Shown piece after piece: positions 10,259-51,132 of a DNA stretch of 58,706 nucleotides; within the stretch, counting starts at the first letter, position 1; every line of letters begins with the position of its first letter. The notes under the pieces were generated by a model, which saw only the letters and a list, made by a program, of their open reading frames with translations, was not told where the DNA came from and searched no databases. The stretch spans positions 1 through 58,706 of the forward strand of contig DAITKN010000001.1 in the NCBI GenBank assembly GCA_036836235.1, written 5' to 3'. The translations under genes were made by a program, and so were the position numbers. Origin of the DNA: Gaiellaceae bacterium (lineage in GTDB: Bacteria > Actinomycetota > Thermoleophilia > Gaiellales > Gaiellaceae).

Positions 10259-10262
10259 GCCC

Positions 10263-10281: not shown

Positions 10282-10339
10282 AGCTCGGTGAAGCGCCTGG
10301 ACAAACTGCTGCGTTTCGCGCAGAACCATGCGCTTTAGG

Positions 10340-10371: not shown

Positions 10372-10379
10372 CGCGCTGG

Positions 10380-10583: not shown

Positions 10584-10969
10584 GCGGCGGCCCCTTCGCA
10601 ACGCCGCGTCCCGTCCCCGGTCGGCTGCTGCCCGCACTGGGTGGTGCGCTCGTCTGTGCGCTCGCGCTGCCCGTGTTTCTCCTCGGAGGTTGGAGTATCG
10701 TCGGATGGGCGCTCGGGTCGACGCTCTGGGTCGGCATCCTGGCGCTCGATCTCCTGCTGGCGCGGGCCCGCGCGTCCGCCGGTAATCTCGCCGCCTCAGG
10801 CGTGCTGGCTTTCGGACTCTTCTTCAAGGCGATCGCGGTCCTCGTCGTGCTCTTCGCCGCAGCGGCGAGGGATTCGCACGTCGCGCTCGCGACCGTCCTC
10901 GTCTTCGGCCTCGCGTACACGCTCGACCGCGGCCTGCAGCTCGCGACCTACTTCGGGGCCGCGCGATGA
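10580..10969 (+). CDS. Hydrophobic membrane protein, ATP synthase protein I-like by position
   Basis: GTG 10580 overlaps the upstream stop (GTGA). About 129 aa with 4 predicted TM segments. It ends in an ATGA overlap with atpB. Confidence 0.45.
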   Translation: MSGGPFATPRPVPGRLLPALGGALVCALALPVFLLGGWSIVGWALGSTLWVGILALDLLLARARASAGNLAASGVLAFGLFFKAIAVLVVLFAAAARDSHVALATVLVFGLAYTLDRGLQLATYFGAAR

Positions 10970-12089: not shown

Positions 12090-12623
12090 ATGCTCGTCGC
12101 AGCCAACGCTCTGATCCAGGTCACTCCGGGTCTGATGATCTGGACGATCGTCGCATTCGGAATCACCGTCTTCGTGCTCAAGCGCTATGCCTTCGGCCCG
12201 ATCCAGAAGACGATCGACGAGCGGCGCGAGCGGATCAGGCAGTCGATCGAGGAGGCCGAGCACGCCCGTGAGGAGGCGCGCCGCCTGCTCGAGGAGCACA
12301 AGGCGCTGATGGGCCAGGCCCGCGGCGAGGCAGAGTCGATCCTCGCGGAGGCTCGGCGCGTCGGCGACGCGCAGCGCGAGCGCATGCGCGAGGAGGTCGA
12401 AGCCGACCGGCAGCGACGCCTCGAGGAGACCCGCCGCCAGATCGAGGGCGAGACGGCCCGCGCGTTGACCCAGATCCGCGCCGAGGTCGCCGAGTTGACG
12501 CTCGAGGCCACCGCGAAGGTCACGGGCAAGGTGCTCGACGACGAGGACCACCGGCGGCTCATCACCGACGCAATCTCGGGACTCGACTTCTCCGTTCTGG
12601 AGCCGGAGCCGGCCGAGAAGTAA
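12090..12623 (+). CDS. atpF: F0F1 ATP synthase subunit b
   Basis: 177 aa with a single N-terminal TM helix, then a long charged coiled coil (E/R/A-rich). Confidence 0.9.
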   Translation: MLVAANALIQVTPGLMIWTIVAFGITVFVLKRYAFGPIQKTIDERRERIRQSIEEAEHAREEARRLLEEHKALMGQARGEAESILAEARRVGDAQRERMREEVEADRQRRLEETRRQIEGETARALTQIRAEVAELTLEATAKVTGKVLDDEDHRRLITDAISGLDFSVLEPEPAEK

Positions 12624-13157
12624 ATGGCCGTCGCGTACCGCATCTACGCCCGCGCCCTCTTCGACGCGGCGCAGAACCACGACCGCCTCGCGCGTGTGCG
12701 CGAGGACCTGGCCGACTTCGTCGCGGCGGTCGAGCAAGTGCCGGAGCTGCGCGCGCTGTTGCGCGATCCCGTGCTGGACCCGAAGGAGAAGGCGGCGGCG
12801 CTCGACTCGATCCTCGGCGGTGTCGACGAGCTCGTCCGCAACTTCCTGCTGCTGGTCGCCGAGAAGAACCGCACCGCGCAGATCGAGGAGATCGCCCGCG
12901 AGTTCGACCGTCTCGTCGCGGCCGAAGAGCGCCGGCTCGAGGTCGAGCTGACGACCGCGTTCGAGCTCTCCGACAAGGAGGCGAAGTCGATCGTCGCCCA
13001 GATCGAGAAGGCGTCCGGCCGCCAGGTCGACGCGACGCGCTCGGTCGATCCCGACCTGATCGGCGGCCTGATCCTGCAGGCCGGCTCGATGCGCGTTGAC
13101 GCCAGCGTGCGCGGCCGCCTAAACCGACTACGACACGACCTAGTGACGAGGAGCTGA
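12624..13157 (+). CDS. atpH: F0F1 ATP synthase subunit delta
   Basis: 177 aa with an OSCP-like sequence (YARALFDAA..., ...[25 protein letters not shown]). Confidence 0.9.
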
Positions 13158-36605: not shown

Positions 36606-37713
36606 GTGGCCGAGCCGACGACGCTTTCGCTCGACGAGCAGTTGAAGGAAATCGGGGCCCAGCTCGCCTGGGTCCGTGATTACCTTTGACCCGGATGCGC
36701 TGAAGGCGCGCCTCGTCGAGCTCGAGCAGGCCATGGGCGCCCCGGGCTTCTGGGACGATCAGCAGAAGGCCGCGAAGATCTCCACAGAGCACTCGCGCGT
36801 CCAACGCCGCGTCGAGCGTTACGAGCGCCTGCAGCACGACTTCGAGGACGCGCAGGAGCTCTACGCCATGGACGGCGACATGCAGGACGAGATCGCCGCG
36901 TCGATCGAGCCGCTGCGCGCCGAGCTCGACCGCCTGCAGGAGGACGCGCTCTTCACCGGCGAGTACGACGGCGGCGACGCGGTCGTGACGATCCAGGCCG
37001 GCACCGGCGGCACCGACGCGCAGGACTGGGCCGAGATCCTGCATCGAATGTACGAGCGCTGGGCCGAGCAGCGCGGCTTCCAGACCGAGGTGATCGAGGC
37101 GAGCCCGGGCGAGGAAGCGGGGCTCAAGTCGACGACCTTCACGGTCAAGGGCGAGAACGCCTACGGGATCCTCAAGGCCGAGCGCGGCTCGCACCGGCTC
37201 GTACGCCTCTCGCCGTTCGACCAGGCCCACCGCCGCCACACCTCCTTCGCCGGCGTGATCGTGAGCCCGCTCCTCCCGGACGACACCGAGGTGGACATCG
37301 ACGAGGCCGACCTCCGCGTCGACACCTATCGCGCGAGCGGCGCCGGCGGCCAGCACGTGAACAAGACCGACTCCGCCGTCCGGATCACGCACCTTCCGAC
37401 CGGCATCGTCGTCCAGTGCCAGAACGAGCGCTCGCAGTCCTCCAACAAGCAGACCGCCCTGCGGCTCTTGCGCTCGCGTCTCGCCGAGCTTGCCGAGGAG
37501 GAGCGCGAGGCCGAGTTGGCGAAGGAACGAGGTGCAGTGTCAGCGATCGACTTCGGCAGCCAGATCCGCTCCTACGTCCTCCAGCCCTACCAGCTGGTGA
37601 AGGACCACCGCACCGACTACGAGGACGGGAACACCCAGGCGGTGCTCGACGGGCGGCTCAACGGCTTCATCCACGCCTACCTGCTGGCGAAAGCCGCGGG
37701 GAAGGTCGTCTAG
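36606..37713 (+). CDS. prfB: Peptide chain release factor 2, expressed via a programmed +1 frameshift: join(36606..36686,36688..37713)
   Basis: The frame-0 leader VAEPTTLSLDEQLKEIGAQLAWVRDYL ends at the canonical slip site CTT TGA C (36684-36690). The +1 frame continues DPDALKARLVELE.... It has the RF2-type SPF tripeptide (RLSPFD) and GGQ (GAGGQHVNKTDSAVRITHLPTG). Confidence 0.93.
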
Positions 37714-37781
37714 CCGGGCCCTTCAGCTAGACTCGCCGGAGCGAAACCCGAACCGGCGCGGCCTACACTCCGCCCCTTTTT

Positions 37782-38573
37782 GTGAACCCGGTGCAGGAAC
37801 TCGACCTTCAGCAACAGCAGCAAGATGGCGCCGCGGCGGAGGCCGAGTCGGCGACGAACGGCGCTGTCCCGGTCGCCCCTTCGGGGGCGATGATCGTGTT
37901 CCAGAACGTGACGAAGATCTACGAGCCGAACGTCGCGGCGCTGCAGGACGTCAGCTTCGTGATCGAGAAGGGTGATTTCGTGTTCGTCGTCGGCGCGTCA
38001 GGCTCGGGGAAGTCGACGCTGATCCGGCTCCTGCTGAAGGAGCTCGAGCCGACGACCGGCCGGATCATGGTGGGCGGCCGCGACCTGACGCGCCTCCGGC
38101 GCTCGAAGGTGCCGCTGCTGCGCAGGAACATCGGCTGCGTCTTCCAGGACTTCAAGCTGCTGCCGAGCCGCACCGCGGCCGAGAACGTCGCCTACGCGCT
38201 CAAGGTGCAGGGCGAGAGCCGGAACTCGATCCGCCGCAAGGTGCCCGAGGTGCTCAACCTCGTCGGCCTCTCGCACAAGACGAACTCGCTTCCCGACGAG
38301 CTCTCCGGCGGCGAGCAGCAGCGCGTCTCGATCGCGCGCGCGTTCGTCAACCACCCGCCGCTCCTCGTCTGCGACGAGCCGACCGGCAACCTCGATCCCG
38401 ACACGTCCGTCGGGATCATGCAGCTGCTCTACCGCATCAACCGCGCGGGGACGACGATCCTGATGGCCACCCACGACCGCGAGATGGTGGACAAGATGCG
38501 CAAGCGCGTGATCGCGCTCGACGGCGGACGCCTGGCGCGCGACGAGCGGCGTGGGGGATACACGTCGGAGTGA
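37782..38573 (+). CDS. ftsE: Cell-division ABC ATPase FtsE (likely true start ATG 37890)
   Basis: Walker [10 protein letters not shown], the signature [14 protein letters not shown], and Walker [13 protein letters not shown]. The first 36 codons from GTG 37782 are low-complexity (QQQQQ). FtsE normally starts M-I-x-F-x-N-V as at 37890. Confidence 0.9.
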
Positions 38574-39439
38574 GGCTCCGGCTTCTCCTCTCCGAGTCGC
38601 TGCGCTCGCTGACCGCGAACCTGTCGACGACCGTCGCGGCGACGATGACGGTCCTGATCGGGATGTTCCTCCTGGGCCTGTTCATCGCGCTCGGCACCTG
38701 GGTCGTCTCGTGGTCGAACCACGTCAAGAAGGAAGTGATCGTCAAGGTCTACTTCGCGCCGGATTCCACTGACGCGCAGATCCGCTCGGTCAACACGACG
38801 CTCGACGGCGAGCCGCGCTTCGTCAAGCACGTGGACTTCGTCTCCAAGGAAGAGGCGCTGGCGCGGATGCAGAAGCGATACCCGCAGCTCGTCAAGAACC
38901 TGGCCGGCAACCCGCTGCCGGCGACGCTCGAGGTCACGCCTACGCATGCGGAGTTCGCCGACGACATCGAGCGCAGCCTGATCCCGCACCCGCCGGGGGT
39001 CGACCGGATCAACTACGGCAAGAAGACGGCGAACCGGATCATCAGCGTGGCGACCGTGATCGAGGTCGTCTTCATCTCGGCGGTGATCATCCTGCTCATC
39101 GCCGCGACCCTCTTGATCGCGAACACGATCCGGCTCTCGATCTTCGCGCGGCGCCGGGAGATCGAGGTGATGAAGCTCGTCGGCGCGACGAACTGGTTCG
39201 TGCGCGGTCCGTTCATGTTGGAAGGCCTGCTCTGCGGCTTGGTCGGCGCGTTCGCGGCCGTCGTCCTGCTCCTGCTCGGCAAGGAGATCGCGATGCCGAA
39301 GATCCTCGGGCACTTCACGACGAGCGACGACGTCCGGGCGCTCTCGTTCTGGCTCAACGCGCTGATCTTGCTGCTCGTCGGGCTGCTGCTCGGCGCCGCG
39401 GGCTCGGGTCTGACGCTGCGGCGTTTCCTGCGCGTCTAG
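38570..39439 (+). CDS. ftsX: Cell-division permease-like protein FtsX
   Basis: 289 aa with TM1, an extracellular domain and 3 TMs, and an FtsX-type C-terminal region. It has a GTGA-type overlap with ftsE. Confidence 0.9.
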   Translation: MRLRLLLSESLRSLTANLSTTVAATMTVLIGMFLLGLFIALGTWVVSWSNHVKKEVIVKVYFAPDSTDAQIRSVNTTLDGEPRFVKHVDFVSKEEALARMQKRYPQLVKNLAGNPLPATLEVTPTHAEFADDIERSLIPHPPGVDRINYGKKTANRIISVATVIEVVFISAVIILLIAATLLIANTIRLSIFARRREIEVMKLVGATNWFVRGPFMLEGLLCGLVGAFAAVVLLLLGKEIAMPKILGHFTTSDDVRALSFWLNALILLLVGLLLGAAGSGLTLRRFLRV

Positions 39440-39577
39440 CCTCCCGAGATCGACCCCGTCGTCGCCGAGATCTCGAAGCGCGGCAAGCTCGTCGTCGGCG
39501 AGCCGTACTTCACGCCCGGAACCCCGATCCTGCTGGATCGCAAGGGGCTCGGCGACGCGCGTCCGGGCGACCTCGCC

Positions 39578-41125
39578 GTGGTGGTGCCAGGCAGAGGCCG
39601 TGCCCGGCTCGAACGTGTCCTCGGCCCGGCGAAGGACATCGAGGCCGTGCTCGAAGGACTTCTCGTCGAGGAGGGCGCGCGCACGGAGTTCGAGCCGTTC
39701 CAGGTGCGCGAGCCGAGCCTCGAGGGTCGGCTCGACCTGCGCGACCTGACGACCTTCACGATCGACCCCGAGACGGCGAAGGACTTCGACGATGCCATCT
39801 CCGTGCGGGCCGAGGGCGACGGGCTGCGCGCGTGGGTGCACATCGCGGACGTGTCCTACTTCGTCGCGGCAGGCTCGCCTCTCGACCGCGGCGCCGCGGA
39901 GCGCTCATTCTCCACCTACGTCCCCGGCCGCGTCGCGCCGATGCTGCCGCCCGAGCTCGCCGACGAGGCCTGCAGCCTGCGCCCGCACGTCGAGCGCCTC
40001 TGCGTCACGGTCGAGCTGCCGTTCGACGGCTCGTTCGAGCTCGGCGAGCCGGAGTTCTACCGCTCGGTCATCCGCAGCGACGAGCGGCTCTCGTACGGCC
40101 AGGCCCAGCGGATTCTCGAAGGACGCGAGTCGATCCGGGACGAGATCGCCGACGCGTTGCGACGCGCCGAGAAGCTGTCCACCGAGCTCCGCCGGCGCCG
40201 TTTCGCGCGTGGTGCGCTGCGGATCGAGACGGGGGAGACCTCCTTCGAGTTCGACCGCCGCGGCGGCGTCGCGCGCGCGTGGCGCGAGAGCGAGCCGCAC
40301 GCGCACATGCTGATCGAGGAGCTGATGATCCTCGCGAACGAGTGCGTCGCGCGCCTGCTCGCCGGCCGGAACCGCGAGGCGCTCTACCGCGTGCACGAGC
40401 GGCCCGATCCGCAGGCGATCCAGCTACTCCTTGCGAAGCTCGCCGACCTGGAGGTGCCCACGCCGCCTGCGCCCGACGCCGACCAGCTCAGTCCGAGCGT
40501 CGCCGCTCGGCTCGCCGGCGAGATCAGCGAGCGCGTGACGGCGTACGTGGAGCAGAGCGGGCGCGGCTGCGAGGCGTTCCCGTCGCTCGTCCTCCGCGCG
40601 CTCAAGCAGGCACGGTACGACCCGAAGAACCTCGGCCACTCGGGACTGGCCTCCCGCGCCTACTGCCACTTCACCTCGCCGATCCGCCGCTACCCCGACC
40701 TCGTCGTCCACCGCAGCCTCCTGCGTGAGCTCGGGGAGGAGGAGGCGCTCCCGGACGATCTGAACCAGCTCGCCGAGCACGCCTCTCAGCGCGAGCGCGC
40801 CGCCGCCGACCTCGAGTACCGCGCGGACGACCTCTGCCTCGCGTGGCTGCTCGACGCGCGGCTGTACGAGGAGGGTTGGGAGGCGACCTTCCCAGGGGAG
40901 ATCACGGGCGTGATCGGATCGGGCCTCTTCGTGCGTTTCGGCGACATCTTCGAGGGCTATCTGCCCGCGCGCAGGCTCCCGGGCGACTACTTCGAGCTGA
41001 ACGACACCGGCACGGCGATGATCGGCCGGCGCGGACGCGGCACCTACCGCCTCGGCGACCCGATCGAGGTGCGGGTCCATGGGATCCGCAAGGCCGAGGG
41101 CAAGGTCGAGGTGGGGCTCGCCTGA
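39578..41125 (+). CDS. rnr: RNase R / RNase II-family 3'-5' exoribonuclease (RNB + S1 domains); the N-terminus probably extends upstream
   Basis: RNB motifs (DPETAKDFDDAISV, HIADVSYFV, LMILANE, GHSGLASRAYCHFTSPIRRYPDLVVHR) and a C-terminal S1 domain. The first canonical start is 39578, but the protein-like in-frame sequence starts right after the ftsX stop. Confidence 0.88.
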   Translation: MVVPGRGRARLERVLGPAKDIEAVLEGLLVEEGARTEFEPFQVREPSLEGRLDLRDLTTFTIDPETAKDFDDAISVRAEGDGLRAWVHIADVSYFVAAGSPLDRGAAERSFSTYVPGRVAPMLPPELADEACSLRPHVERLCVTVELPFDGSFELGEPEFYRSVIRSDERLSYGQAQRILEGRESIRDEIADALRRAEKLSTELRRRRFARGALRIETGETSFEFDRRGGVARAWRESEPHAHMLIEELMILANECVARLLAGRNREALYRVHERPDPQAIQLLLAKLADLEVPTPPAPDADQLSPSVAARLAGEISERVTAYVEQSGRGCEAFPSLVLRALKQARYDPKNLGHSGLASRAYCHFTSPIRRYPDLVVHRSLLRELGEEEALPDDLNQLAEHASQRERAAADLEYRADDLCLAWLLDARLYEEGWEATFPGEITGVIGSGLFVRFGDIFEGYLPARRLPGDYFELNDTGTAMIGRRGRGTYRLGDPIEVRVHGIRKAEGKVEVGLA

Positions 41126-41135
41126 ACGTCGTCTC

Positions 41136-41681
41136 TTAGAGCTCGTCCGGCAGCAGCGAGTAGGAGACCATGTCGCGGCGCTCGCCCCGGACGTCCATCC
41201 AGCTCCGTTGGACGCCCTCGCGCGTGAAGCCCGCCTTCTCGGCCACGCGCTGAGAGGCGATGTTCTCGACGTCCGCGTGTAGCTGGAGCCGCTTGGCGCC
41301 CGTGTTCTCCGCGACCCAGCGCGTGAGGAGCGTCAGTGCGCGGGGCGCGATCCCGCGCCCGCGCTGAGCGCTCGCGACCCAGTAGCCGAACTCGGTGCGC
41401 TCCGCCTCGTCCCCGCGGAAGCCGCACGCGCCGAGCAACTCGCCGGTCCTTGCATCGAAGACGCCGACGTTGCCGGCGCCCTCTGCGTTCCGCTGCGGTT
41501 GGCTCCCGATGAACTCGCGCCCATCCTCCTCGCGGTAGGGGAAAGGCATCATCGGCAGCCAGTGGTGGAGGGTCTCGTCGTTGCAGGCTTCGACGAGCGC
41601 CGGCACGTCGTCCATCCGCCACGGCCGCAGCGTCACGACGCCGTCCGTCAGCTCTTCGAAGAGATCGACCGGCTCGGCCAT
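41136..41681 (-). CDS. GNAT-family N-acetyltransferase (RimJ/RimL-like)
   Basis: 181 aa with the acetyl-CoA loop QRGRGIAPRAL and the pattern typical of Acetyltransf_3. Confidence 0.8.
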   Translation of the reverse strand: MAEPVDLFEELTDGVVTLRPWRMDDVPALVEACNDETLHHWLPMMPFPYREEDGREFIGSQPQRNAEGAGNVGVFDARTGELLGACGFRGDEAERTEFGYWVASAQRGRGIAPRALTLLTRWVAENTGAKRLQLHADVENIASQRVAEKAGFTREGVQRSWMDVRGERRDMVSYSLLPDEL

Positions 41682-41703
41682 GGCTCGATCCTAGAATGAC
41701 GAA

Positions 41704-42156
41704 GTGGCCGAGAAGCTGATCACAGACAACCGCCGTGCGCGGCACGACTACCACCTGCTCGAGCGCCACGAGGCCGGGATGGTGCTCACCGGGACGGAGG
41801 TGAAGTCGCTGCGCCAGGGCCGCGTCACGCTCGGGAACGCGTACGCGGACGTGCGCGACGGCGAGCTCTGGCTCATCGGCGCCCATATCGACGTGTACGA
41901 CCAGGGCAATCTCGCGAACCACGAGCCCGAGCGCGACCGCAAGCTCCTGATGAAGCGCCATGAGATCGACTCCCTGTACAGCACGGTTCGCGAGAAGGGC
42001 CTGACGCTCGTCCCGACGAGGCTCTACTTCAAGGACGGGCGCGTGAAGCTGGAGATCGCCGTCGCGCGCGGCAAGGAGCTGCGCGACAAGCGCCGCGACC
42101 TCGTCCAGCGAGACCAGCAGCGCGAGATGGAACGCGCGCTCAAGGCACGGCGCTAG
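41704..42156 (+). CDS. smpB: SsrA-binding protein
   Basis: 150 aa with a GTG start, ITDNRRARHDYHLLERHEAGMVLTGTEVKSLR and LVPTRLYFKDGRVKLEIAVARGK. Confidence 0.96.
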   Translation: MAEKLITDNRRARHDYHLLERHEAGMVLTGTEVKSLRQGRVTLGNAYADVRDGELWLIGAHIDVYDQGNLANHEPERDRKLLMKRHEIDSLYSTVREKGLTLVPTRLYFKDGRVKLEIAVARGKELRDKRRDLVQRDQQREMERALKARR

Positions 42157-43054
42157 CGAGCGGCCCGCGGAGGTGGATCCGGCCCGGCGCCGGGGTGTAA
42201 CCCAGCTTTTCGTTGACGCGCCGCATCGACGCGTTCCGCACCTCATTCGTCGTGTCGAGCAGGTCGAGCCCGTGCTCGATCGCCCACACGATTTGCGCCC
42301 GCTTGAGCGCGCTCGCGATCCCGCGCCCGCGCCAGGCGCGCTTGACGCCCGTCATGGCATGTATCGCGTGGCCAGGGCGAGCGGCAGAGATGCGGAGCAT
42401 CGCGTAGCCGACCGGCTCGTCTTGCGCGACAGCGATCCACGTTTCGTTGCCAGGGCCGTACAGGTGGTGCTGAACCCAGTGCTCGAGCGGGCGCATCACT
42501 TCGGCTTCGGCGCCGGGGATGTCCGGAAACGATTCGCGCGCGACGTCGTAGAGCGGGTTCGCAAGATCCGGACGCTCCGCAAGCGTGACGATCTCGACAT
42601 CCTCCGGCGGCTCGACCGCGGGAGGTTCTATGCCGTCGAGCCGTAGCTCGAGACCGGCTTCGCGCGACTCCTCGACGAACCCGCGGCGCAGCGCGTAGTC
42701 GATGCCCTCCGGATCCTCCTCGCGCGCGAAGGTGTCGAGCGTTTCTCGGCCGCGTTCGCGCGCCCACGCGGAGACGGCTTCGTAGAGTGCGGTCCCAACG
42801 CCGCGCCGCCGCCCAGCCGGAAGGACGGTAATCAGGGTGAACACGTGGTCGGGTCGCGGCGAGCCGATCGCCGCGACGGCGGATCCGACGACCTCGCCGT
42901 CGAGCTCCCCGAGCACCTCGAGCGTCTCGTCGTGCCCGGCTCGCCAAGCGGTCGTCTCTTCGACGGTGAAAGCGGCGCGCGGCCAGACCCGGTTGTAGAC
43001 CTCGGTCGACGCGGCGAGGTCGTCTTCGTCGCGGCAGGGCCTGATCTCCACCAT
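42140..43054 (-). CDS. Tandem-GNAT N-acetyltransferase (two acetyltransferase domains, MshD-like architecture)
   Basis: 304 aa with two acetyl-CoA-binding loops (RRRGVGTALY and RGRGIASALK). The specific function cannot be inferred. Confidence 0.7.
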   Translation of the reverse strand: MVEIRPCRDEDDLAASTEVYNRVWPRAAFTVEETTAWRAGHDETLEVLGELDGEVVGSAVAAIGSPRPDHVFTLITVLPAGRRRGVGTALYEAVSAWARERGRETLDTFAREEDPEGIDYALRRGFVEESREAGLELRLDGIEPPAVEPPEDVEIVTLAERPDLANPLYDVARESFPDIPGAEAEVMRPLEHWVQHHLYGPGNETWIAVAQDEPVGYAMLRISAARPGHAIHAMTGVKRAWRGRGIASALKRAQIVWAIEHGLDLLDTTNEVRNASMRRVNEKLGYTPAPGRIHLRGPLASAVP

Positions 43055-43061
43055 TTGCGGC

Positions 43062-43067
43062 TACAAT
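43062..43067 (+). promoter_or_regulatory. Candidate -10 element (TACAAT) for ssrA
   Basis: TACAAT lies 17 nt upstream of the mature tmRNA 5' end. That would give a short leader removable by RNase P. No convincing -35 was seen. Confidence 0.4.
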
Positions 43068-43084
43068 ATGGTCAACACACATAC

Positions 43085-43449
43085 GGGGGCGACCTGGCTT
43101 CGACGTGGTCGGTTCTCCGGCAGAGCTGCAAGCGGAGGTCTCCGGTCGGCCTCCTAAAACAACCGGAAACCAATGCAAGTGCGGATAATCAACTCGCACT
43201 CGCCGCTTAGTTCTTAGGGACTAAGTGACGTGTCGCCCCGAGTTGGGCCCGTGGCCCGGAGGCGGCATCAACTAACGGGCTGGCGCTCAGGGAGAGTCAC
43301 TCGCCTGAAAGCGTGAGATCCAAAGGAGGACTAGCCCGAACGGTTGGTCGGTCCCCACCGGCCGCCGGGCGAAATTCAAGGGGTACCTAAGCTTGTAGAT
43401 GCTCTGACCGGTGCGATTGCGGACGCGGGTTCGATTCCCGCCGCCTCCA
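43085..43449 (+). ncRNA. ssrA: Transfer-messenger RNA (tmRNA)
   Basis: The 5' GGGGGCGACCTGGCTTCGACG pairs with the 3' CGCCTCC-A (with a G3:U wobble). The T-arm is GGGTTCGATTCCC. The internal tag frame ends ...ASADNQLALAA-TAG (43175-43210). CCA is not encoded. It lies downstream of smpB. Confidence 0.95.
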
Positions 43450-43450
43450 T
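43424..43450 (+). repeat. attL-like direct repeat (last 27 nt of ssrA)
   Basis: CGCGGGTTCGATTCCCGCCGCCTCCAT, identical to 45108-45134. Confidence 0.9.
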
Positions 43451-43452
43451 CA

Positions 43453-43505
43453 CGCCCCGAAGTCCGCTCCGGCTCCGCCGGAGCATGCGACTTCGGGGCG
43501 TTTCT
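43453..43505 (+). terminator. Intrinsic terminator for ssrA supplied by the inserted element
   Basis: A 12-bp stem CGCCCCGAAGTC/GACTTCGGGGCG encloses an inner stem CTCCGG/CCGGAG and is followed by TTTCT. Confidence 0.6.
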
Positions 43506-43676
43506 GCTCCTAGCGGTGGACCGCAGCGAGCCGACGCCGGCGAAGCCGGCATCGGCGGCTGATGTGGACACGGGCCTGTGCTTTGGAGTCAGCACACCCA
43601 AGGGTGCATCTGCGTCTCGCTGGCTACCTTCCTGTCCGGAGCCTCAGGGCGCGCCCGTCTTTGCCGATAACAATAA

Positions 43677-43691
43677 GTGGACAAAGTCCAC
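43677..43691. promoter_or_regulatory. Inverted repeat GTGGAC-AAA-GTCCAC upstream of the HTH gene (candidate operator / RDF site)
   Basis: Read directly, in an AT-rich stretch about 45 nt upstream of ATG 43735. Two further GTGGAC copies are at 43516 and 43564. Confidence 0.45.
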
Positions 43692-43734
43692 ATACTCGAC
43701 AAAGACGACATCAGGAGCTATAGTCCTGAGGACG

Positions 43735-43998
43735 ATGACAACCAAGGAACTGCTGAACGTTCGTGACACCGCTCGGTTGCTGGGCGTTCACGAGAACACG
43801 GTCCGCAACTGGGAGGCTGGCGGTCTGCTGCGCGCCGTTCACCTGCCTGGCAGCGGCTTCCGGCGATTCGCGCCTCAGGACGTCGAGCGGCTGCGCGCTG
43901 AGATGTTCGAGCAGCTGGCGCCGGCCACCGAGGGTCCCGTCGTGAACCCCGGGCGCAAGCGCAGCGGTCGACTTGTCTTAGGCGACGCGACCGAGTAG
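43735..43998 (+). CDS. Excisionase/MerR-superfamily helix-turn-helix protein (HTH_17-like)
   Basis: 87 aa: LLNVRDTARLLGVHENTVRNWEAGGLLRAVHLPGSGFRRFAPQDVERL. GAGGA lies 4 nt upstream of the ATG. The longer track ORF (from 43411) would overlap ssrA and is rejected. Confidence 0.7.
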   Translation: MTTKELLNVRDTARLLGVHENTVRNWEAGGLLRAVHLPGSGFRRFAPQDVERLRAEMFEQLAPATEGPVVNPGRKRSGRLVLGDATE

Positions 43999-44040
43999 CC
44001 AGGACGAAGACGACCGGGGCGCCGATAGGCTGGCGCGCCG

Positions 44041-44622
44041 ATGTCGCCGAGACCGAAACGACCTTCAGACGCCGACTACTACGAGCGCGATCGCGTCGAG
44101 CTCTTCAGTCAGGGCGATCTGTTCCGCGACGTTCCGCTCGCGTATCCGTTGCCGGCTGACGAGCTTCTCGTCGACGAGGCGAGCAGAGGCAGCCGACGCT
44201 TCCTGAGTGGTCCGCTCGCGTTCGGTCCCGCGATGCTGATCACGCCGAGCTGCTCGCTCGGGGCTCAGGGCGTCGAGGGCTACGGTCATCCTGTCCGGAC
44301 GCTTGTCCCGCTGATCCCAGTCGTGCAGCTCGTCGACGACGGCATCGTCAAGGAAACGGCACTCGCCGACCTTCGGCGCTTCGATCACCTGATCAACTAC
44401 ATGTACCTGCCGCCGCTCGAAATCGACGAGCTCGAGTTCTCGATGCCCGAGAGCATCGCGCTCCTGTACATGCCGGTCACGCTCCACCATGCGTTCCTCG
44501 AAGGTCAGCGTGTCTCCCAGCTCGCGTACCGCGGCGCACAGCAGTTGCAGCGGAAGCTCGTGTGGTTCTACTCGGGCTGGCTCGAGGATGATCTCGATTC
44601 GTTCGACCCCCCGATGGACTGA
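44041..44622 (+). CDS. Hypothetical protein (island cargo, no recognised family)
   Basis: 193-aa ORF with non-repetitive, balanced composition. It is on the same strand as the flanking island ORFs with short gaps. Confidence 0.55.
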   Translation: MSPRPKRPSDADYYERDRVELFSQGDLFRDVPLAYPLPADELLVDEASRGSRRFLSGPLAFGPAMLITPSCSLGAQGVEGYGHPVRTLVPLIPVVQLVDDGIVKETALADLRRFDHLINYMYLPPLEIDELEFSMPESIALLYMPVTLHHAFLEGQRVSQLAYRGAQQLQRKLVWFYSGWLEDDLDSFDPPMD

Positions 44623-44659
44623 CGGCCTGGTCTTTGGGTCCCGTTGGCACTATTCACGC

Positions 44660-45097
44660 ATGGAGCTGAAGCGGTCGATTGTCAGCCTTCTGAACAAGGC
44701 GTGCACATGCGTTGACGAAGTCGCCTACCGTCCGGCGGTCGTCCGGCTCACGCTCCCGCTGCCACGCTGGTGGAGCTGCCAACTCGCGAAACTCTCGATG
44801 CGCCTTGACGATCGCTGGGGCACGCGTTATTGGGCGGGTGACGCCGCGCCGGCCGCGCCCCAGGGAACCTGCGAGGCATGCGGGCGTCGTGCCGCATGGC
44901 TTGTCGTCGGTGGTCCCCATGAGGACGATGAGGAGCCAGGGGAGTACTTCCTTGCAAGCCGTCCGATTTATCTCTGCGGTTGGTGCCGTCTCGAGACCGA
45001 GCATCCAATGGACAACGAAGGCGACGTGCGCCGGGCACTCGCCGCGGCTCGAGCTCGGAGCATCGCGTGGCGCTGGCGCTGGTCGGCGGCTCGCTGA
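44660..45097 (+). CDS. Hypothetical protein with two CxxC pairs (possible zinc ribbon)
   Basis: 145 aa from ATG 44660, with CEACGRR...CGWCRLE. It ends 10 nt before the attR-like repeat. Confidence 0.45.
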   Translation: MELKRSIVSLLNKACTCVDEVAYRPAVVRLTLPLPRWWSCQLAKLSMRLDDRWGTRYWAGDAAPAAPQGTCEACGRRAAWLVVGGPHEDDEEPGEYFLASRPIYLCGWCRLETEHPMDNEGDVRRALAAARARSIAWRWRWSAAR

Positions 45098-45107
45098 AGG
45101 AACCTTG

Positions 45108-45134
45108 CGCGGGTTCGATTCCCGCCGCCTCCAT
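45108..45134 (+). repeat. attR-like direct repeat (orphan copy of the ssrA 3' end)
   Basis: Identical 27 nt. The upstream sequence does not continue the tmRNA, so this is a fragment and not a gene. Confidence 0.9.
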
Positions 45135-45138
45135 TCTT

Positions 45139-45155
45139 GTTGTCGTTTCGACAAC
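45139..45155 (+). terminator. Hairpin GTTGTCG-TTT-CGACAAC just after the orphan ssrA end (possible ancestral ssrA terminator)
   Basis: A 7-bp perfect stem lies 4 nt after the repeat. The tail is GTGTT, so it is weak as an intrinsic terminator. Confidence 0.35.
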
Positions 45156-45206
45156 GTGTTATGAAAACGCTCGATCAGGCGAGAGCACCGTCGCGCACTG
45201 AAGAGT

Positions 45207-45629
45207 TCATTGGTTGGCGGCGTGCGCGAGCGCCGAGGGCGTCTGGCGGCCGACGATCGCCGGGGCCTCGTGGACGAGCTCGTCGTTCTCAAGGGCCTCC
45301 ACCATGAACAGGGCAAAGTCCACGCGGCGCGTGATGTTGCTCTCGAGAATGGGGTCGCCCACGTGCCGGCTCCACACGGGCAGGCCCTGACTCTCGCCCT
45401 CCTCGAGGTCGCTGCCGCGCACGACGGTCCACCGCGTGTCGCTGGCGAACACCCGCCGGCACGCCTCCACCTGGTCGTCGAGGTCGGCGAAGCGAGCGAG
45501 ACGCGCGAGCGGGCCGAAGACCTTCACGATCGCCTTGAGCTTCCACGAATACACGTCCTGGCCGTCGCGCGTGATGTGCCACCCGGACGAGAACACGAGG
45601 CGCGCGCCCGGAGGCGCGTGGTCGAGCAC
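45207..45629 (-). pseudogene. 5'-truncated NAD(P)H-binding (atypical SDR / NmrA-like) gene fragment
   Basis: The ORF encodes only the C-terminal two-thirds (..GTAQAVLDHAPPGARLVFSSG...TVVRGSDL...RVDFALFMVEAL). The same frame hits a stop 26 codons upstream of the annotated Met. I found no GxxGxxG Rossmann segment in any frame upstream. Confidence 0.55.
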
Positions 45630-45852
45630 CGCCTGGGCCGTTCCCGTCGAGTACCCGTGGAGCGATGAGGCTGCGAGAGCGCTGGAGCGGGTGGAAGCGG
45701 GAGCCGTTCACGAGCGACAGCCGCAAGCACGTGTCCGTCTGGGAAAAGCCGGCGGTCTAGGCCGCATCGTCGGGGGCATTACCGAAACGCTGGCCCAGCC
45801 AGCAACCCCCGCCCCTTGGCAGCATCCGTGGATCTGCCGATCGTTTCGTTGC

Positions 45853-46017
45853 TTACGAGCGGTCGGTGTCTGAGCGACGAAGGAGCCGCGCGAGCAGCGA
45901 CCGGCGAGCCGGAGTCTCTCGCGCCGCCTGCTCGCGTCGCAGATCGGCGTTCGCCCATGCGCGCTCGCGCATTCGGCGAGTGGCATAGCGGGGCTTCCAG
46001 ATAACCGGCTTGGGCAT
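45853..46017 (-). CDS. Small basic hypothetical protein downstream of the RidA gene
   Basis: 54 aa from ATG 46017 (MPKPVIWKPRYATRRMRERAW...), 10 nt after the RidA stop. No family recognised. Confidence 0.25.
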   Translation of the reverse strand: MPKPVIWKPRYATRRMRERAWANADLRREQAARETPARRSLLARLLRRSDTDRS

Positions 46018-46027
46018 GGTCCCGAGC

Positions 46028-48292: not shown

Positions 48293-48625
48293 TCAGATGT
48301 CTTCGGCCCAGCGGCGGTTGCGCTCGAAGTCCCAGCAACCGAAGCTGAAGATCGCCGCGGCGGCCAGGACGGCTGCGCCGAAGACTGACGGATAGAACCA
48401 GCGCCCGACGCCGAAGCCGAGGATCGTGAGCATGGTCAGCGTCGTCCAGACCCAGAGGAACGCGATCATCAGGCCGCACGCGGCAGACGCGAGCAGCAGC
48501 TCCAGCTTTCCGCCGTTGCCGACCCTCGGGATCAGCAAGTCCTGCTGCGAGATGTCGCGCTCGCTCTTGTCGGGGCGGACATTGCGGTCGAGCGACGCAC
48601 GATCCCAGCCCTTGGCCATGGCCAT
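48293..48625 (-). CDS. Small two-TM membrane protein
   Basis: 110 aa from ATG 48625 (MAMAKGWDRASL...), with two hydrophobic helices. It follows the upstream minus-strand gene by 8 nt. Confidence 0.45.
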   Translation of the reverse strand: MAMAKGWDRASLDRNVRPDKSERDISQQDLLIPRVGNGGKLELLLASAACGLMIAFLWVWTTLTMLTILGFGVGRWFYPSVFGAAVLAAAAIFSFGCWDFERNRRWAEDI

Positions 48626-48633
48626 GGCGTAGC

Positions 48634-49338
48634 TCAGGCGCTTTGAGCCGCTCCCCGGCGCGGGGTCGCACGGAAGAGGACGACCGACGTCCCGATCATC
48701 CAGATCCAGAAGCCGAAGGTAGGCGGTCCGTTGAGGATGCCGCCCACAGTGTGGAAGCTTCCGGTCGCTCCCTGCGCGGACGCGGCAACGATCCCGCCGC
48801 AGATCACGAGCGCCCCCGCGACGAGGCCGAGCCATGTCAGCCAGCGCGGGAAGAGCCTTGACAGGTGCATCGCCAGCGAGCCGGCGACCATGCAGACGCC
48901 GATCGGCGCCCAGATCATGTCGAACAGGATCGTGCCCGCCGTGTCGAGCGCGACGATCGCGCTCGCGGCGCCGTGCGCATGCGCGAGCCAAGCTCCGGAG
49001 GTCACGAGCGCGTAGTCGATCACCTCGATCGCGACGCTCACGGCCATCGCCGCGACGGCGAACGTGGCCAGCGGGAGCTCCCGGCGGGTGTCGCGGAACG
49101 CGTCGCGCAGGCCGATCGCGAACAGGATGCGGCCCAGCAGCACGAAGCTGAGCCAGCCGGCGGCGAAGGCCATCCGCTGAGGGTGGGTGTACTCCGCGAC
49201 GATCGCCGCGGGATCGACCCCGAGCTTGTCGGTCGGTACCGACGGAATGAACGGGATCGCGATCCACTCCGCGAAGTACATGAGGGTCCCGAGCAGTGCG
49301 AGCCGATTGCCGACGAGCTGGTCACGTCTGGACGTCAC
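48634..49338 (-). CDS. Polytopic membrane protein (6 TM, unknown family)
   Basis: 234 aa of hydrophobic segments with normal composition. The overlapping 324-aa and 755-aa ORFs in other frames are Arg-rich artefacts. Confidence 0.55.
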   Translation of the reverse strand: MTSRRDQLVGNRLALLGTLMYFAEWIAIPFIPSVPTDKLGVDPAAIVAEYTHPQRMAFAAGWLSFVLLGRILFAIGLRDAFRDTRRELPLATFAVAAMAVSVAIEVIDYALVTSGAWLAHAHGAASAIVALDTAGTILFDMIWAPIGVCMVAGSLAMHLSRLFPRWLTWLGLVAGALVICGGIVAASAQGATGSFHTVGGILNGPPTFGFWIWMIGTSVVLFRATPRRGAAQSA

Positions 49339-49378
49339 GTGTTCCTCCGAAAGAGTGTTTCTGCGAACGTACCGTGTG

Positions 49379-50401
49379 ATGTACGCCGCCGCCGACGACC
49401 GTTACGGGCGGATGCAGTACAGGCGGTGCGGCCGGAGCGGCTTGAAGCTCCCCGCGATCTCGCTCGGCCTCTGGCACAACTTCGGGCACGACCGGCCGCT
49501 CGAGACCAGTCGTGCGATCGTCAGGCGGGCTTTCGACCTCGGGATCACGCATTTCGACCTCGCGAACAACTACGGCCCTCCCTACGGCTCCGCGGAGGAG
49601 AACTTCGGCCGCCTCATGCGTACGGACCTCGCTCCGTACCGCGACGAGCTCGTGATCTCGACGAAGGCGGGGTACGACATGTGGGCGGGCCCGTACGGGG
49701 AGTGGGGCTCCCGCAAGTACCTGCTCGCGAGCCTCGACCAGTCGCTCGGGCGTATGGGCCTGGACTACGTCGACATCTTCTACTCGCATCGCTTCGATCC
49801 CGAGGCGCCGCTCGAAGAGACGATGGGGGCTCTGCACACCGCCGTCCTGCAGGGCAAGGCTCTGTACGTCGGCGTCTCGTCGTACTCGGCGCAGAAGACG
49901 CGGGAGGCGGCGGCGATCCTGCGGAGTCTCGGCACGCCGCTCCTCATCCACCAGCCCTCGTACTCGATGCTGAACCGCTGGATCGAGGAGGAGCTGCTCG
50001 ACGTGCTGGCCGACGAAGGCGTCGGCTGCATCGGCTTCTCGCCGCTCGCGCAGGGGATGCTCACGGACAAGTATCTGGACGGGATTCCCGAGGGCTCGCG
50101 GGCGACGCAGGGCGACTCGCTCTCGCGAGATCTGATCACCGACGAGACGCTGGAGAAGATCCGCGCCCTGAACGAGCTGGCCTCGCGGCGCGGCCAGGCG
50201 CTTGCGCAAATGGCACTCGCGTGGACGCTGCGCGACCCGCGCATGACCTCGACGCTCGTCGGGGCGAGCAGCGTCCCTCAGCTGGAGGCGAACGTCGGTG
50301 CGCTCGACCGCCTGGAGTTCACCGCCGAGGAGCTCGCGGAGATCGACCGCCACGCGACCGAGAGCGGCATCAACCTCTGGGCTCGCTCGAGCAGCGAGTG
50401 A
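49379..50401 (+). CDS. gpr: Aldo/keto reductase, L-glyceraldehyde-3-phosphate reductase (YghZ/Gpr) type
   Basis: It is near-collinear with my recollection of E. coli YghZ (MQYRRCGRSGLKLPAISLGLWHNFG, GITHFDLANNYGPPYGSAEENFG, STKAGYDMW, LLIHQPSY). Confidence 0.85.
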   Translation: MYAAADDRYGRMQYRRCGRSGLKLPAISLGLWHNFGHDRPLETSRAIVRRAFDLGITHFDLANNYGPPYGSAEENFGRLMRTDLAPYRDELVISTKAGYDMWAGPYGEWGSRKYLLASLDQSLGRMGLDYVDIFYSHRFDPEAPLEETMGALHTAVLQGKALYVGVSSYSAQKTREAAAILRSLGTPLLIHQPSYSMLNRWIEEELLDVLADEGVGCIGFSPLAQGMLTDKYLDGIPEGSRATQGDSLSRDLITDETLEKIRALNELASRRGQALAQMALAWTLRDPRMTSTLVGASSVPQLEANVGALDRLEFTAEELAEIDRHATESGINLWARSSSE

Positions 50402-51132
50402 TGTACGTCGAGGAGGTGCCGGGCCGCGAGCCGCCGGTCGTGCTTCTCCACCACGGCGCCAACTCTTTGCGCGGCTGGGATCCGTTCGTGCCGGAGATTG
50501 CCGGCGGGCGCCGGCTGGTCGCCTACGACCGGCGCGGGTTCGGGTCGTCTCCCCGGGACGCCGTCTTCGACGCCGGGCTGTTCGACCGCGACGCCGACGA
50601 CCTGGCCGAGCTGCTGCGCGAGCGCGACGCGACGCCCGCGCATCTGGTCGGTTTCAGCGACGGGGCCACCGTGGCGCTCGTTGCGGCCGTGCGCCATCCG
50701 GAGCTCGTCGTGAGCGTGACGGCGATTGGAAACCACATCCGCCTGGACCGCGCGACGCACGAGCTGCTGCTCGACGGCGGGCCGGAGCTCGCGCCAGAGC
50801 GGCACGCGGAGTACCGCGAGCGACACGGGGAGGACTGGGAACAGGTCTTCCTCAGCTGGTACGACCTCTGGACGCAGCGCCTCGCCGACTGGGACATCGA
50901 GGAGTCGCTCCGCGTGATCAGCGCCCCGGTGCTCGTCGTTCACGATCGCAACGACCCGCTCTCGCCGCGCGAGCACGCGGAGGGCGTGATCCGGAGCATC
51001 CCGCACGCGAAGCTGTCTTGGTACGACACCGGCAGGCACGGGCCGCACTACGTCGAGCGCGAGCGCTTCGACGCCGAGCTCGAGGCTCACCTCCGGGCAG
51101 CCGAGTCGCCCTCGATACTTCTCGATCTGTGA
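50401..51132 (+). CDS. Alpha/beta-fold hydrolase
   Basis: 243 aa with HG-type oxyanion LLHHGAN, nucleophile elbow GFSDGA, and a late HDRNDP / GRHGPH acid/His region. It has an ATGA-type overlap with gpr. Confidence 0.75.
   Translation: MYVEEVPGREPPVVLLHHGANSLRGWDPFVPEIAGGRRLVAYDRRGFGSSPRDAVFDAGLFDRDADDLAELLRERDATPAHLVGFSDGATVALVAAVRHPELVVSVTAIGNHIRLDRATHELLLDGGPELAPERHAEYRERHGEDWEQVFLSWYDLWTQRLADWDIEESLRVISAPVLVVHDRNDPLSPREHAEGVIRSIPHAKLSWYDTGRHGPHYVERERFDAELEAHLRAAESPSILLDL

Follow-up and report, generated by a model that had tools for sequence, protein, structure and literature searches.

A probably decayed, integrase-less island in the tmRNA gene of a Gaiellaceae bacterium retains a conserved gene pair with a predicted MazF/CcdB-fold protein

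Integration hot spots classically include tmRNA genes, and islands whose tyrosine integrases target tRNA and tmRNA genes are reportedly marked by a sublocation preference and by "traffic at the tmRNA gene", observations said to go back to work by Williams in 2002 and 2003. Integrase-less remnants bounded by repeats have already been described, and derivatives of ICEs or IMEs that keep attL and attR and have lost their recombination and transfer genes are known as CIMEs. Mobile elements are also stabilized by type II toxin-antitoxin modules with MazF/PemK/Kid or CcdB toxins. The locus described here belongs to the Gaiellaceae, soil Actinomycetota that are abundant yet barely cultured. Arrays at the ssrA gene of Dehalococcoides include units without an integrase, which were read as either cis-mobilizable or fixed (PMC3146451).

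The window, by which we mean the whole 58.7-kb stretch of DNA analyzed, carries smpB (41704–42156) upstream of ssrA, the tmRNA gene. A 1.68-kb insert starts at 43451, directly at the 3′ end of the intact tmRNA gene, and contains three open reading frames. The features of the locus are:

43085–43449, plus strand: ssrA, encoding the tag peptide ADNQLALAA (ARAGORN; Rfam RF00023, 167.7 bits); its 3′ end is the integration target
43424–43450, plus strand: attL core, made up of the T-stem, T-loop, acceptor 3′ strand, CCA and one further base, and belonging to the functional ssrA
43451–43591, unstranded: left segment unique to the window's lineage, without homology to any of 30 related loci and without the motif GGAAYSRTT
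43452–43501, plus strand: strong hairpin followed by TTTCT, read as the ssrA terminator supplied by the insert (RNAfold, −42 kcal/mol)
43592–43734, plus strand: control region of ORF A, preserved in essentially every locus; a promoter scan gives 10 of 12 matches
43735–43998, plus strand: ORF A, 87 amino acids, an HTH_17/MerR_1 DNA-binding protein (Pfam HTH_17, 31.7 bits against a cut-off of 27; MerR_1, 31.0 bits, likewise above cut-off)
44041–44622, plus strand: ORF B, 193 amino acids, of an undescribed family, with a predicted MazF/PemK/CcdB-type barrel and ∼80 extra residues (AF2, Foldseek)
44660–45097, plus strand: ORF C, 145 amino acids, variable-slot cargo, a Cys4 zinc-ribbon protein (147 homologs; alignment)
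45099–45107, plus strand: GGAACCTTG, the element-side arm immediately left of the attR core, kept in nearly all related elements
45108–45134, plus strand: attR core, where the displaced 3′ end of ssrA survives as an orphan copy
45139–45155, plus strand: weak hairpin in the host flank, with a 7-bp stem (−8.3 kcal/mol)

The last 27 nucleotides of ssrA, CGCGGGTTCGATTCCCGCCGCCTCCAT, occur exactly twice, as the attL and attR cores, and both copies are perfect. The repeat is exactly 27 bp long, because the bases bordering the two copies differ on either side. No match to the core arose in 100 shuffled sequences, and none is expected by chance; the ssrA of the window is the only attB in the genome. 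An earlier, sequence-only reading of this DNA had proposed a base-perfect duplication of the ssrA end, a strong terminator inside the insert after the functional copy and, from these, the footprint of site-specific integration into ssrA. All three are borne out, the last also by integrase-bearing relatives that use the same core. The hairpin it had placed after the orphan copy exists, but is weak. The region around this hairpin is probably the pre-insertion downstream region of ssrA: the flank beyond the orphan core has a homolog to the right of attR in one relative (L011), which fits such an ancestral arrangement. A second hairpin (43524–43561, −28.5 kcal/mol) lies inside the left segment.

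The same reading had called the insert AT-richer than its flanks and integrase-less. The first claim holds modestly, with a GC content of 65.1% for the insert against 68.9% for the window (3rd percentile among windows of the same size), a composition foreign to the host; GC3 is 0.72–0.81 for the insert ORFs (0.80–0.81 for the ORF A-ORF B module) against 0.94 for smpB. The AT-rich string quoted as an example proves to be the conserved putative operator and promoter of ORF A. The second claim stands for tyrosine recombinases. No recombinase domain was detected in the insert ORFs (Pfam, PHROGs, NCBIfam, PADLOC), and tblastn over the full window with five diverse ssrA-island integrases, a search that covered the tyrosine type, returned only noise at E ≤ 10; a missed tyrosine recombinase is thereby ruled out. 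Nor is the structure an assembly artifact, because 20 fetched loci, drawn from at least 10 samples in JGI, ENA, and NCBI assemblies, are 99.86%–100% identical over positions 43085–45300.

The same ORF A-ORF B pair is found at the far end of 4–7 kb ssrA islands in 30 related Gaiellaceae/Gaiellales loci, most of which open with a tyrosine integrase beside ssrA. Full-length islands run from the ssrA/attL core through an arm of GGAAYSRTT repeats, a minus-strand tyrosine integrase, an HTH_3/31 repressor-like gene and a first variable cargo slot to the operator and promoter, ORF A, ORF B, a second variable slot, GGAACCTTG and the attR core. Among 26 species-representative genomes, most loci keep the order tmRNA, integrase, ORF A-ORF B, core copy, and several hold tandem arrays. 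The DNA of positions 43592–44622 is 81%–86% identical to the islands of species-representative genomes, and these islands contain no counterpart of 43451–43591 or of ORF C. Relatives of ORF B in L011, L013, and L014 lie in islands with the same core at both bounds and a Phage_integrase gene abutting ssrA; related ssrA-adjacent tyrosine integrases with this core, on which the sequence-only reading had counted, therefore do exist in relatives. Most integrase-bearing arms carry GGAAYSRTT at constant offsets (+28 and +57, or +41); the whole window has no copy, and the integrase-bearing L011 and L017 also lack an exact one in their arms. No paper found in the literature mentions Gaiella together with integrase and tmRNA, and the Gaiellales ssrA-island family itself appears to be undescribed.

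Integrase-less forms number at least six (the window, L018, L023, L025, L026, and L028). ORF A lies ∼170–630 bp from the ssrA core in these loci, and the only sequence common to them is a 60–75 bp control region. Because their left junctions all differ, a shared mini-element propagating among these genomes is ruled out. L025 retains an integrase fragment and an L036-type arm, L028 retains an L015-type arm, and these remnants are continuous with the module, which therefore indicates deletion and not original absence. In the window, the left segment stands exactly where relatives have the attL arm, the integrase, the HTH_31 gene, and the first cargo slot. The deletion in the window's own lineage would be read from its relatives, no sequence capturing the event itself. 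A nested insertion, in which a relic core should lie between the integrase module and ORF A, is not supported: full-length islands contain no degenerate core there at ≤7 mismatches in 27.

We consider it probable that the insert descends, by decay and loss of the integrase, from a family of ssrA islands long resident in Gaiellaceae, and that it is fixed in place and carries a surviving, toxin-antitoxin-like ORF A-ORF B module. Everything from the attL core to the control region of ORF A would have been lost in the window's lineage and replaced by 141 bp of unrelated DNA, which would now provide the ssrA terminator, and the two-gene module, a single cargo gene (ORF C), and attR would be what is left over. 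The remaining pair would resemble a type II toxin-antitoxin or maintenance module, and such a role would explain why it outlasts repeated loss of the integrase.

The larger protein of the pair, ORF B, has 707 homologs, with 189 cluster representatives, and its residues G25, D26, and P124 are invariant. The AF2 model of ORF B is a confident prediction (pLDDT 93, pTM 0.88). When it was searched with Foldseek, the best 50 PDB matches were all MazF/PemK/CcdB toxins, with a probability of 1.00 and target-normalized TM scores of 0.65–0.75, and the best matches in BFVD were PemK-like. No sequence-level membership in the PemK/MazF or CcdB families was found: ORF B matches nothing in Pfam, PHROGs, PADLOC, or NCBIfam, 39 members of its family have no match in NCBIfam or in Pfam, its toxin families included, the family profile finds 0 matches among PDB sequences, and hhalign against a small MazF/PemK alignment gives a probability of 0.3%. 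The known catalytic Arg and Thr of MazF have no mappable counterparts. By its model, ORF B is confidently predicted to be a MazF/CcdB-fold protein. The third protein, ORF C, has invariant cysteines at positions 71, 74, 106, and 109 and homologs in other islands; it matches no family in Pfam, PHROGs, NCBIfam, or PADLOC, and its AF2 model, of moderate confidence (pLDDT 72), gave no match in a fold search.

ORF A ends 42 bp upstream of ORF B and has a conserved C-terminal tail (residues 55–87). Its control region contains TTTGCCGAT at 43660–43668 and a perfect palindrome, GTGGACAAAGTCCAC, at 43677–43691, conserved like the promoter, just upstream of the −35 element of a predicted promoter (−35 TCGACA, 43696–43701; 17-nt spacer; −10 TATAGT, 43719–43724). 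Because the ATG follows 10 nt after the −10 element, the ORF A mRNA would be nearly leaderless. In the mechanism we favor, ORF A would bind the palindrome abutting the −35 element of its own promoter and so control a nearly leaderless ORF A-ORF B transcript, and ORF B would be a MazF/CcdB-fold effector, presumably toxic, that ORF A restrains and neutralizes through the conserved tail, which would wrap around an ORF B dimer.

The two genes are also paired at great distance. An HTH_17 gene adjoins an ORF B-like gene in all four distant relatives sampled, at ∼30% identity and outside ssrA islands, although in two of the four it is convergent and not upstream; the pairing extends to contexts without ssrA, beside housekeeping genes. 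Across the related loci, amino-acid identity averages 87.6% in ORF A and 87.3% in ORF B, against 72.2% in SmpB and 65.7% in the integrase. Median dS is 0.69 (ORF A), 0.72 (ORF B), and 0.61 (smpB), with dN/dS values of 0.11, 0.10, and 0.36 in that order. The pair is thus under strong purifying selection and more conserved than SmpB at equal synonymous depth. A recent horizontal sweep of the module is rejected as the cause of the high identity, because the module matches smpB in depth of dS. Chromosomal toxin-antitoxin systems are not usually conserved so strongly across a whole family at one fixed locus. To our knowledge, HTH_17 does not belong to the classical MazE or CcdA types of antitoxin, and a literature search for HTH_17/MerR-type antitoxins found nothing.

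A bolder extension, which we hold only tentatively and regard as rather doubtful, is that the pair is an undescribed maintenance or addiction system, or a host-co-opted stress module tied to trans-translation, that anchors the Gaiellaceae ssrA islands, has been held under stronger purifying selection than SmpB throughout the family's divergence, and outlives the integrase while the islands, possibly integrase-less ones too, still cycle through ssrA. Here the attR sites, kept nearly perfect over the divergence of the family, would indicate that islands still move in and out of the gene. A maintenance or toxin-antitoxin-like role would explain how islets persist as fixed genome features and would give the MazF/CcdB fold a new effector family, and a module that benefits its host would exemplify the domestication, at ssrA, of a gene pair from a mobile element.

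Population data bear on whether the window's own insert moves. An exact look-up of the right-flank protein found the insert at 10 of 10 distinct places (20 contigs); no empty site was seen among them, in consensus assemblies, which hide rare excision products. Exact scans of metagenome contigs, subject to the same masking of rare products by consensus assembly, gave 0 matches to the attB junction (...GATTGCGGA + 27-bp core + TCTTGTTGTCG...) and to the attP junction (...GAAGGAACCTTG + 27-bp core + CACGCCCCGAAG...). No species-level relative sharing the window's right flank was found, and no tandem helper element is present at its ssrA. The insert looks like a fixed remnant because it has no GGAAYSRTT arm, is 99.9%–100% identical between loci, and yields no empty site or circle junction; it is fixed in the population, its own ability to excise is probably gone, no sign of assisted excision is seen, and it would now be immobile. 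Against this, its perfect attR core and intact GGAACCTTG arm are what a site still in use would show.

These results go against the proposal of the sequence-only reading that the insert is a non-autonomous element, of the CIME or satellite kind, mobilizable in trans and not an old scar, and they correspond to the outcome that it had itself named as refuting. In its full form, the proposal has a helper's ssrA-specific tyrosine integrase acting on attL and attR, with ORF A as the directionality factor. Because attR and the conserved GGAACCTTG arm, which is kept across the family, are intact, mobilization in trans could still occur, and it would be mechanistically plausible given that integrase-bearing relatives and tandem arrays offer a route to accretion and mobilization. 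L018, in which an integrase-less ORF A-ORF B unit is followed by a second unit, and the similar interpretation of integrase-less units in Dehalococcoides arrays (PMC3146451) point the same way. The perfection of both cores also fits, but a 27-bp repeat is uninformative on this point at any age below a few percent divergence. Against mobility, all 10 places are occupied and the attB and attP scans are empty; the attL-side arm lacks the motif that most integrase-bearing elements carry at fixed offsets; the genome's only attB has no tandem helper, and no integrase lies within the 58.7 kb; the six integrase-less left junctions are all different; and ORF A does not co-vary with the integrases. We therefore regard continued mobilization in trans as unlikely.

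The depth of the module's divergence allows for another history, in which ORF A-ORF B and attR were domesticated by the host and inherited vertically since the Gaiellaceae ancestor, the integrases arrived later, and the window is close to the basal state and not a deletion product. A synonymous divergence as deep as that of smpB, with dN/dS of ∼0.10, agrees with this, as do a module that diverges about as much as the host flanks in the L013/L016/L024/L030 group, its presence alongside integrases down to 38% identity and at least three arm types, and the lack of any match of ORF B to sequenced phages or plasmids. We nevertheless judge this history quite unlikely. A late arrival of the integrases sits poorly with the finding that no full-length island has a relic core between its integrase module and ORF A and with the arm and integrase fragments that L025 and L028 keep continuous with the module. 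The GC3 of the module marks it as compositionally foreign, the attR cores are still nearly perfect although, at such divergence, a scar no longer in use should have degenerated, and the correlation between SmpB and ORF B in pairwise similarity is weak (rho 0.31).

We consider it very unlikely that the island uses ORF A as a true excisionase (RDF) and ORF B as an accessory factor in its recombination or replication, and not as a toxin-like effector: the HTH_17 fold, a match to PHROG 66 ("excisionase and transcriptional regulator", 1.2e-8), and the want of any other obvious Xis candidate in full-length islands are outweighed by a score below the curated cut-off of the excisionase model TIGR01764 (18.8 against 28.8 bits), by a position 2–3 kb from the integrase in relatives, where ORF A stays 77%–95% identical (∼87% on average) while the integrases range from 38% to 97%, by its retention in six integrase-less loci, by the persistence of its pairing with ORF B beside housekeeping genes, and by best structural matches of ORF B that are exclusively toxins. 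Of the "retained RDF-like gene" in the sequence-only reading, the HTH_17 protein stands, as one half of a conserved two-gene unit; the RDF role is not supported, and ORF A is more likely a regulator or antitoxin-like partner of ORF B than an excisionase.

Returning to the reading we prefer, that of a decayed island with a surviving module, the insertion compares with described systems as follows. As in the ssrA islands of Dehalococcoides, the target is the 3′ end of a single-copy tmRNA gene, a reverse-strand integration module lies beside attL, tandem arrays occur, and the cargo varies (McMurdie et al., 2011, PMC3146451). In contrast, the Dehalococcoides islands rely on a serine recombinase of the CcrB-like kind, with a repeat of 20 bp, whereas the Gaiellaceae islands employ tyrosine integrases (PF00589), and their core, 27 bp long, covers the T-arm and acceptor 3′ strand; their strongly conserved distal HTH_17 and MazF-fold module has no counterpart in the Dehalococcoides description (PMC3146451). 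The insert shares with CIMEs intact core repeats, a missing recombinase, and, by comparison with relatives, descent from an integrase-bearing family, but it keeps only the cores and the attR-side arm: attL arm motifs, an empty site, a circle junction, and a tandem helper were not found. From tyrosine-integrase islands in tRNA and tmRNA genes it does not differ in principle, since the element replaces the 3′ end of the RNA gene and leaves the gene intact, the displaced fragment marks the far boundary, and the block of identity begins at the T-stem.

The module invites comparison with type II toxin-antitoxin systems. A small DNA-binding gene is followed ∼40 bp later by an effector with a predicted MazF/CcdB barrel and a C-terminal helix, a palindrome that would serve as operator lies at the promoter, and the pair sits on integrative elements and persists when the element decays. 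It differs in that ORF B is ∼80 residues longer and lacks sequence-level membership in the PemK/MazF or CcdB families, and in that its partner is HTH_17/MerR-like and not AbrB or RHH. The module is also far better conserved than typical chromosomal toxin-antitoxin loci, and vertically more stable. The insertion is an ordinary feature of a known kind, and the new part is only the strongly selected two-gene module without family assignment; added to this is a so-far undescribed family of Gaiellaceae ssrA islands, clearly modular in layout, in which the integrase has been lost repeatedly.

The 1.68-kb insertion at the 3′ end of the tmRNA gene (ssrA) is best explained as the fixed remnant of an ssrA island that has lost its integrase, and features of this kind are known. 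It is bounded by CGCGGGTTCGATTCCCGCCGCCTCCAT, which occurs as two perfect copies in the whole window (attL core, 43424-43450; attR core, 45108-45134) and has no match in 100 dinucleotide-preserving shuffles. The identity between the copies stops at the adjoining base on either side, which fixes the repeat length at 27 bp. The first copy belongs to an authentic tmRNA gene, whose 3′ end it forms; this gene is set in the usual neighborhood of RNase R, GNAT, smpB, GNAT, and ssrA. Exact string search, the shuffles, ARAGORN, and Rfam thus bear out the sequence-only reading, in which the end of ssrA recurs base-perfect at the orphan copy. That reading also placed a strong terminator inside the insert and a different hairpin after the orphan copy, and both were found, the second being weak. 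The features of the locus are as follows.

39578-41125, RNase R
41704-42156, smpB
43085-43449, tmRNA gene ssrA (ARAGORN, tag ADNQLALAA; Rfam RF00023, 167.7 bits)
43452-43501, hairpin of -42 kcal/mol followed by TTTCT, directly after the functional copy
43677-43691, perfect palindrome GTGGACAAAGTCCAC upstream of ORF A
43696-43724, predicted promoter TCGACA-N17-TATAGT (10/12 matches)
43735-43998, + strand, ORF A, 87 aa, HTH_17/MerR_1
44041-44622, + strand, ORF B, 193 aa
44660-45097, + strand, ORF C, 145 aa
45139-45155, weak hairpin with a 7-bp stem, after the orphan copy

A second strong hairpin (43524-43561, -28.5 kcal/mol) lies within the lineage-specific 141-bp left segment. Same-species contigs keep the trans-translation neighborhood at 36676-43449 (prfB, ftsE, ftsX, RNase R, GNAT, smpB, GNAT, ssrA).

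The same 2.2 kb is 99.86-100% identical across 20 fetched loci from JGI, ENA, and NCBI assemblies, which rules out an assembly artifact. As had been proposed, the insert is AT-richer than its surroundings, with a GC content of 65.1% against 68.9% for the window (3rd percentile among same-size windows) and a GC3 of 0.72-0.81 in its ORFs against 0.94 in smpB. The earlier claim that no tyrosine recombinase lies in or near the insert also holds: Pfam, PHROGs, PADLOC, and NCBIfam detect no recombinase domain in ORF A, B, or C, and tblastn of five diverse ssrA-island tyrosine integrases against the full 58.7 kb returned nothing above noise.

The exact ORF B protein was found in 86 blocks of the assembly collection, with an identical integrase-less context in all 10 places listed. 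Homologs number 707, the best 120 of which are 84-99% identical; one source names one of them Gaiella sp. In three more divergent loci (L011, L013, and L014), the HTH_17-ORF B pair occupies the distal end of a longer island, which begins beside ssrA with a minus-strand Phage_integrase gene plus an HTH_3/HTH_31 gene and is flanked by the same core as the window insert. L011 has three core copies and is therefore a tandem array. Scanning species-representative genomes gave 26 further loci, all from Gaiellaceae, Gaiellales, or Thermoleophilia MAGs, with the majority layout tmRNA, integrase, 2-3 kb, ORF A-B, 0.2-7.5 kb, and a core copy. Window positions 43592-44622 share 81-86% DNA identity with the islands, compared with 75-81% for the tmRNA genes from those genomes; nothing in these related islands corresponds to 43451-43591 or to the ORF C region. 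In nearly all islands, the attR core has the 9-nt GGAACCTTG (window 45099-45107) directly on its left. Most integrase-bearing islands carry GGAAYSRTT repeats at constant distances from the attL core (+28 and +57, or +41), a pattern that would be expected of arm-type integrase sites; the motif occurs nowhere in the entire window.

Full-length islands contain no relic core (≤7 mismatches in 27) between the integrase module and ORF A, so they behave as single units, and a nested-insertion model is not supported for them. In L024, L029, L030, L031, and L034, the 30 nt right of the attR core resemble the attL arm starts of other islands (tctccctgctaatcg...), which suggests that they are relic arms of older elements, with array growth by accretion. 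L034 has another integrase, together with a diverged and partial repeat of the ORF A-B module, at 9344-10754, to the right of its first island's attR. In L017, ARAGORN called a spurious permuted tmRNA (12566-13106) where the ssrA 3′ end is duplicated at attR.

In six genomes (the window, L018, L023, L025, L026, and L028), ORF A lies within about 170-630 bp of the ssrA core, too close for an integrase to fit between them. Their core-to-ORF A sequences have only the 60-75 bp ORF A control region in common. L025 retains an integrase fragment and an arm matching that of the integrase-bearing L036, the L028 arm matches L015, and the L018 arm resembles L031. Since what is retained matches different relatives and the remainder is unshared, the integrase-less forms are separately arisen deletion derivatives; by this comparison integrase loss appears recurrent and independent, at least six times. 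L023 and L028 have no recognizable attR.

The sequence-only reading suggested that the insert is a satellite-like element mobilizable in trans rather than an old scar. The islet's attR core and GGAACCTTG arm are indeed intact, but its attL arm lacks the family's repeated GGAAYSRTT motif, no helper element stands in tandem at this ssrA, and the window has no integrase. Contigs encoding the exact right-flank protein carry ORF A and ORF B in 10 of 10 distinct places (20 contigs, at least 10 samples), with no empty site, and exact attB and attP junction patterns had no match in the metagenome contig collection, whose consensus assemblies hide rare excision products. By itself the perfect repeat tells little, as any insertion that has diverged by less than a few percent should show it and ssrA function preserves the attL copy. 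On these four lines (occupied sites, junctions, helper or integrase, and attL arm) the islet gives no sign of continuing mobility, an outcome that the sequence-only reading had itself named as refuting it; mobilization in trans is possible but improbable, and we favor a fixed remnant.

A gap of 42 bp separates ORF A from the downstream ORF B. The control region of ORF A, comprising TTTGCCGAT, the palindrome, and the promoter, is kept in essentially all loci; with 10 nt between the promoter and the ATG, the predicted transcript is nearly leaderless. Conservation extends along the whole ORF A protein and takes in the tail that follows the HTH. Residue 82 (43978-43980) is Leu in the window and Phe in 24/24 relatives, the tail motif RLVFGDA being otherwise invariant. 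ORF A had been read as an RDF/excisionase-like gene; it scores 18.8 bits against a curated excisionase model with a cut-off of 28.8 and does not covary with the integrases, which together argue against a cognate RDF role. An HTH_17 gene adjoins the ORF B relative in all four distant cases examined (28-33% identity); in two of them it lies upstream in the same direction, and in the other two it is convergent. The contexts include a tRNA-Ala island, a DnaB-helicase neighborhood, and a housekeeping neighborhood. The two genes thus form a functional unit of their own.

None of four HMM libraries assigns ORF B to a family, and 38 other members have no Pfam match; theirs is a small family, with 189 cluster representatives among 1.84 billion. 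The AlphaFold2 model of ORF B, based on an alignment of 39 diverse members, has high confidence (pLDDT 93.1, pTM 0.88). The best 50 PDB structure matches are all MazF, PemK, MoxT, or CcdB toxins (probability 1.00; TM 0.65-0.75, normalized to target), and among viral proteins the top matches are PemK-like. A family profile run against PDB sequences found nothing, and hhalign of the family against four MazF/PemK sequences gave 0.3% probability. Given no sequence-level link, ORF B is confidently modeled as having a MazF/CcdB fold and is not called a MazF family member. Searches of sequenced phages and plasmids found no match to it. Fragmented ORF B matches around position 10000 in several of the loci L033-L039, mostly long-read MFD MAGs, may represent either pseudogenes or indel errors.

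In the 14 genomes whose genes are complete, amino-acid identity between pairs averages 87.6% for ORF A and 87.3% for ORF B, against 72.2% for SmpB and 65.7% (range 38-97%) for the integrases. Nei-Gojobori median dS is 0.69, 0.72, and 0.61 for ORF A, ORF B, and smpB, and dN/dS is 0.11, 0.10, and 0.36. With dS as deep as that of smpB and low dN/dS, the high identity is that of an old module under strong purifying selection; the dS values reject recent spread as its cause. Among L013, L016, L024, and L030, DNA identity is 84-89% in the module, 82-90% in the host flanks, and 90-94% in the tmRNA-int-HTH_31 block, and the stretches between conserved blocks are unrelated, which defines two cargo slots. 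These comparisons suggest long vertical residence of the islands, despite which attR cores still match at 26-27/27 in most genomes.

ORF C belongs to a real gene family (147 homologs, 48-100% identity), and four invariant cysteines indicate a putative zinc ribbon protein. Homologs are cargo in another ssrA island (L041) and occur in a tRNA-Ala element with TrwC and an integrase (L042). Its structure model is moderate (pLDDT 72) and has no fold match.

Right of the islet, the gene at 45207-45629 (- strand) matches NAD_binding_10 only in the C-terminal third (profile positions 117-183 of 184); no Rossmann-type N terminus is visible upstream (45630-46027), so the gene looks truncated. At ~45761-45795, ~650 bp right of attR, lies a strain-variable breakpoint: of the same-species contigs, L051 diverges, L052 replaces 45796-45883, and L053 and L055 end. 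Another, L003, lacks ~2.1 kb (48299-50427) and is only 90% identical beyond.

The undescribed ORF A-ORF B module, with its predicted toxin-type fold, merits follow-up: it is more constrained than SmpB, is conserved family-wide at ssrA, and has survived integrase loss on at least six independent occasions. By analogy, it may work like a type II TA or maintenance module, although ORF B falls outside MazF/PemK and CcdB by sequence and ORF A would be a partner of atypical class; a literature search for HTH_17/MerR-type antitoxins found nothing. Nor did we find a paper on Gaiella ssrA elements. The islet has the structure by which a CIME is defined, but mobilization is unsupported. The Dehalococcoides ssrA genomic islands (PMC3146451) use a serine recombinase, whereas the Gaiellaceae islands carry Phage_integrase, but the two architectures are closely parallel.
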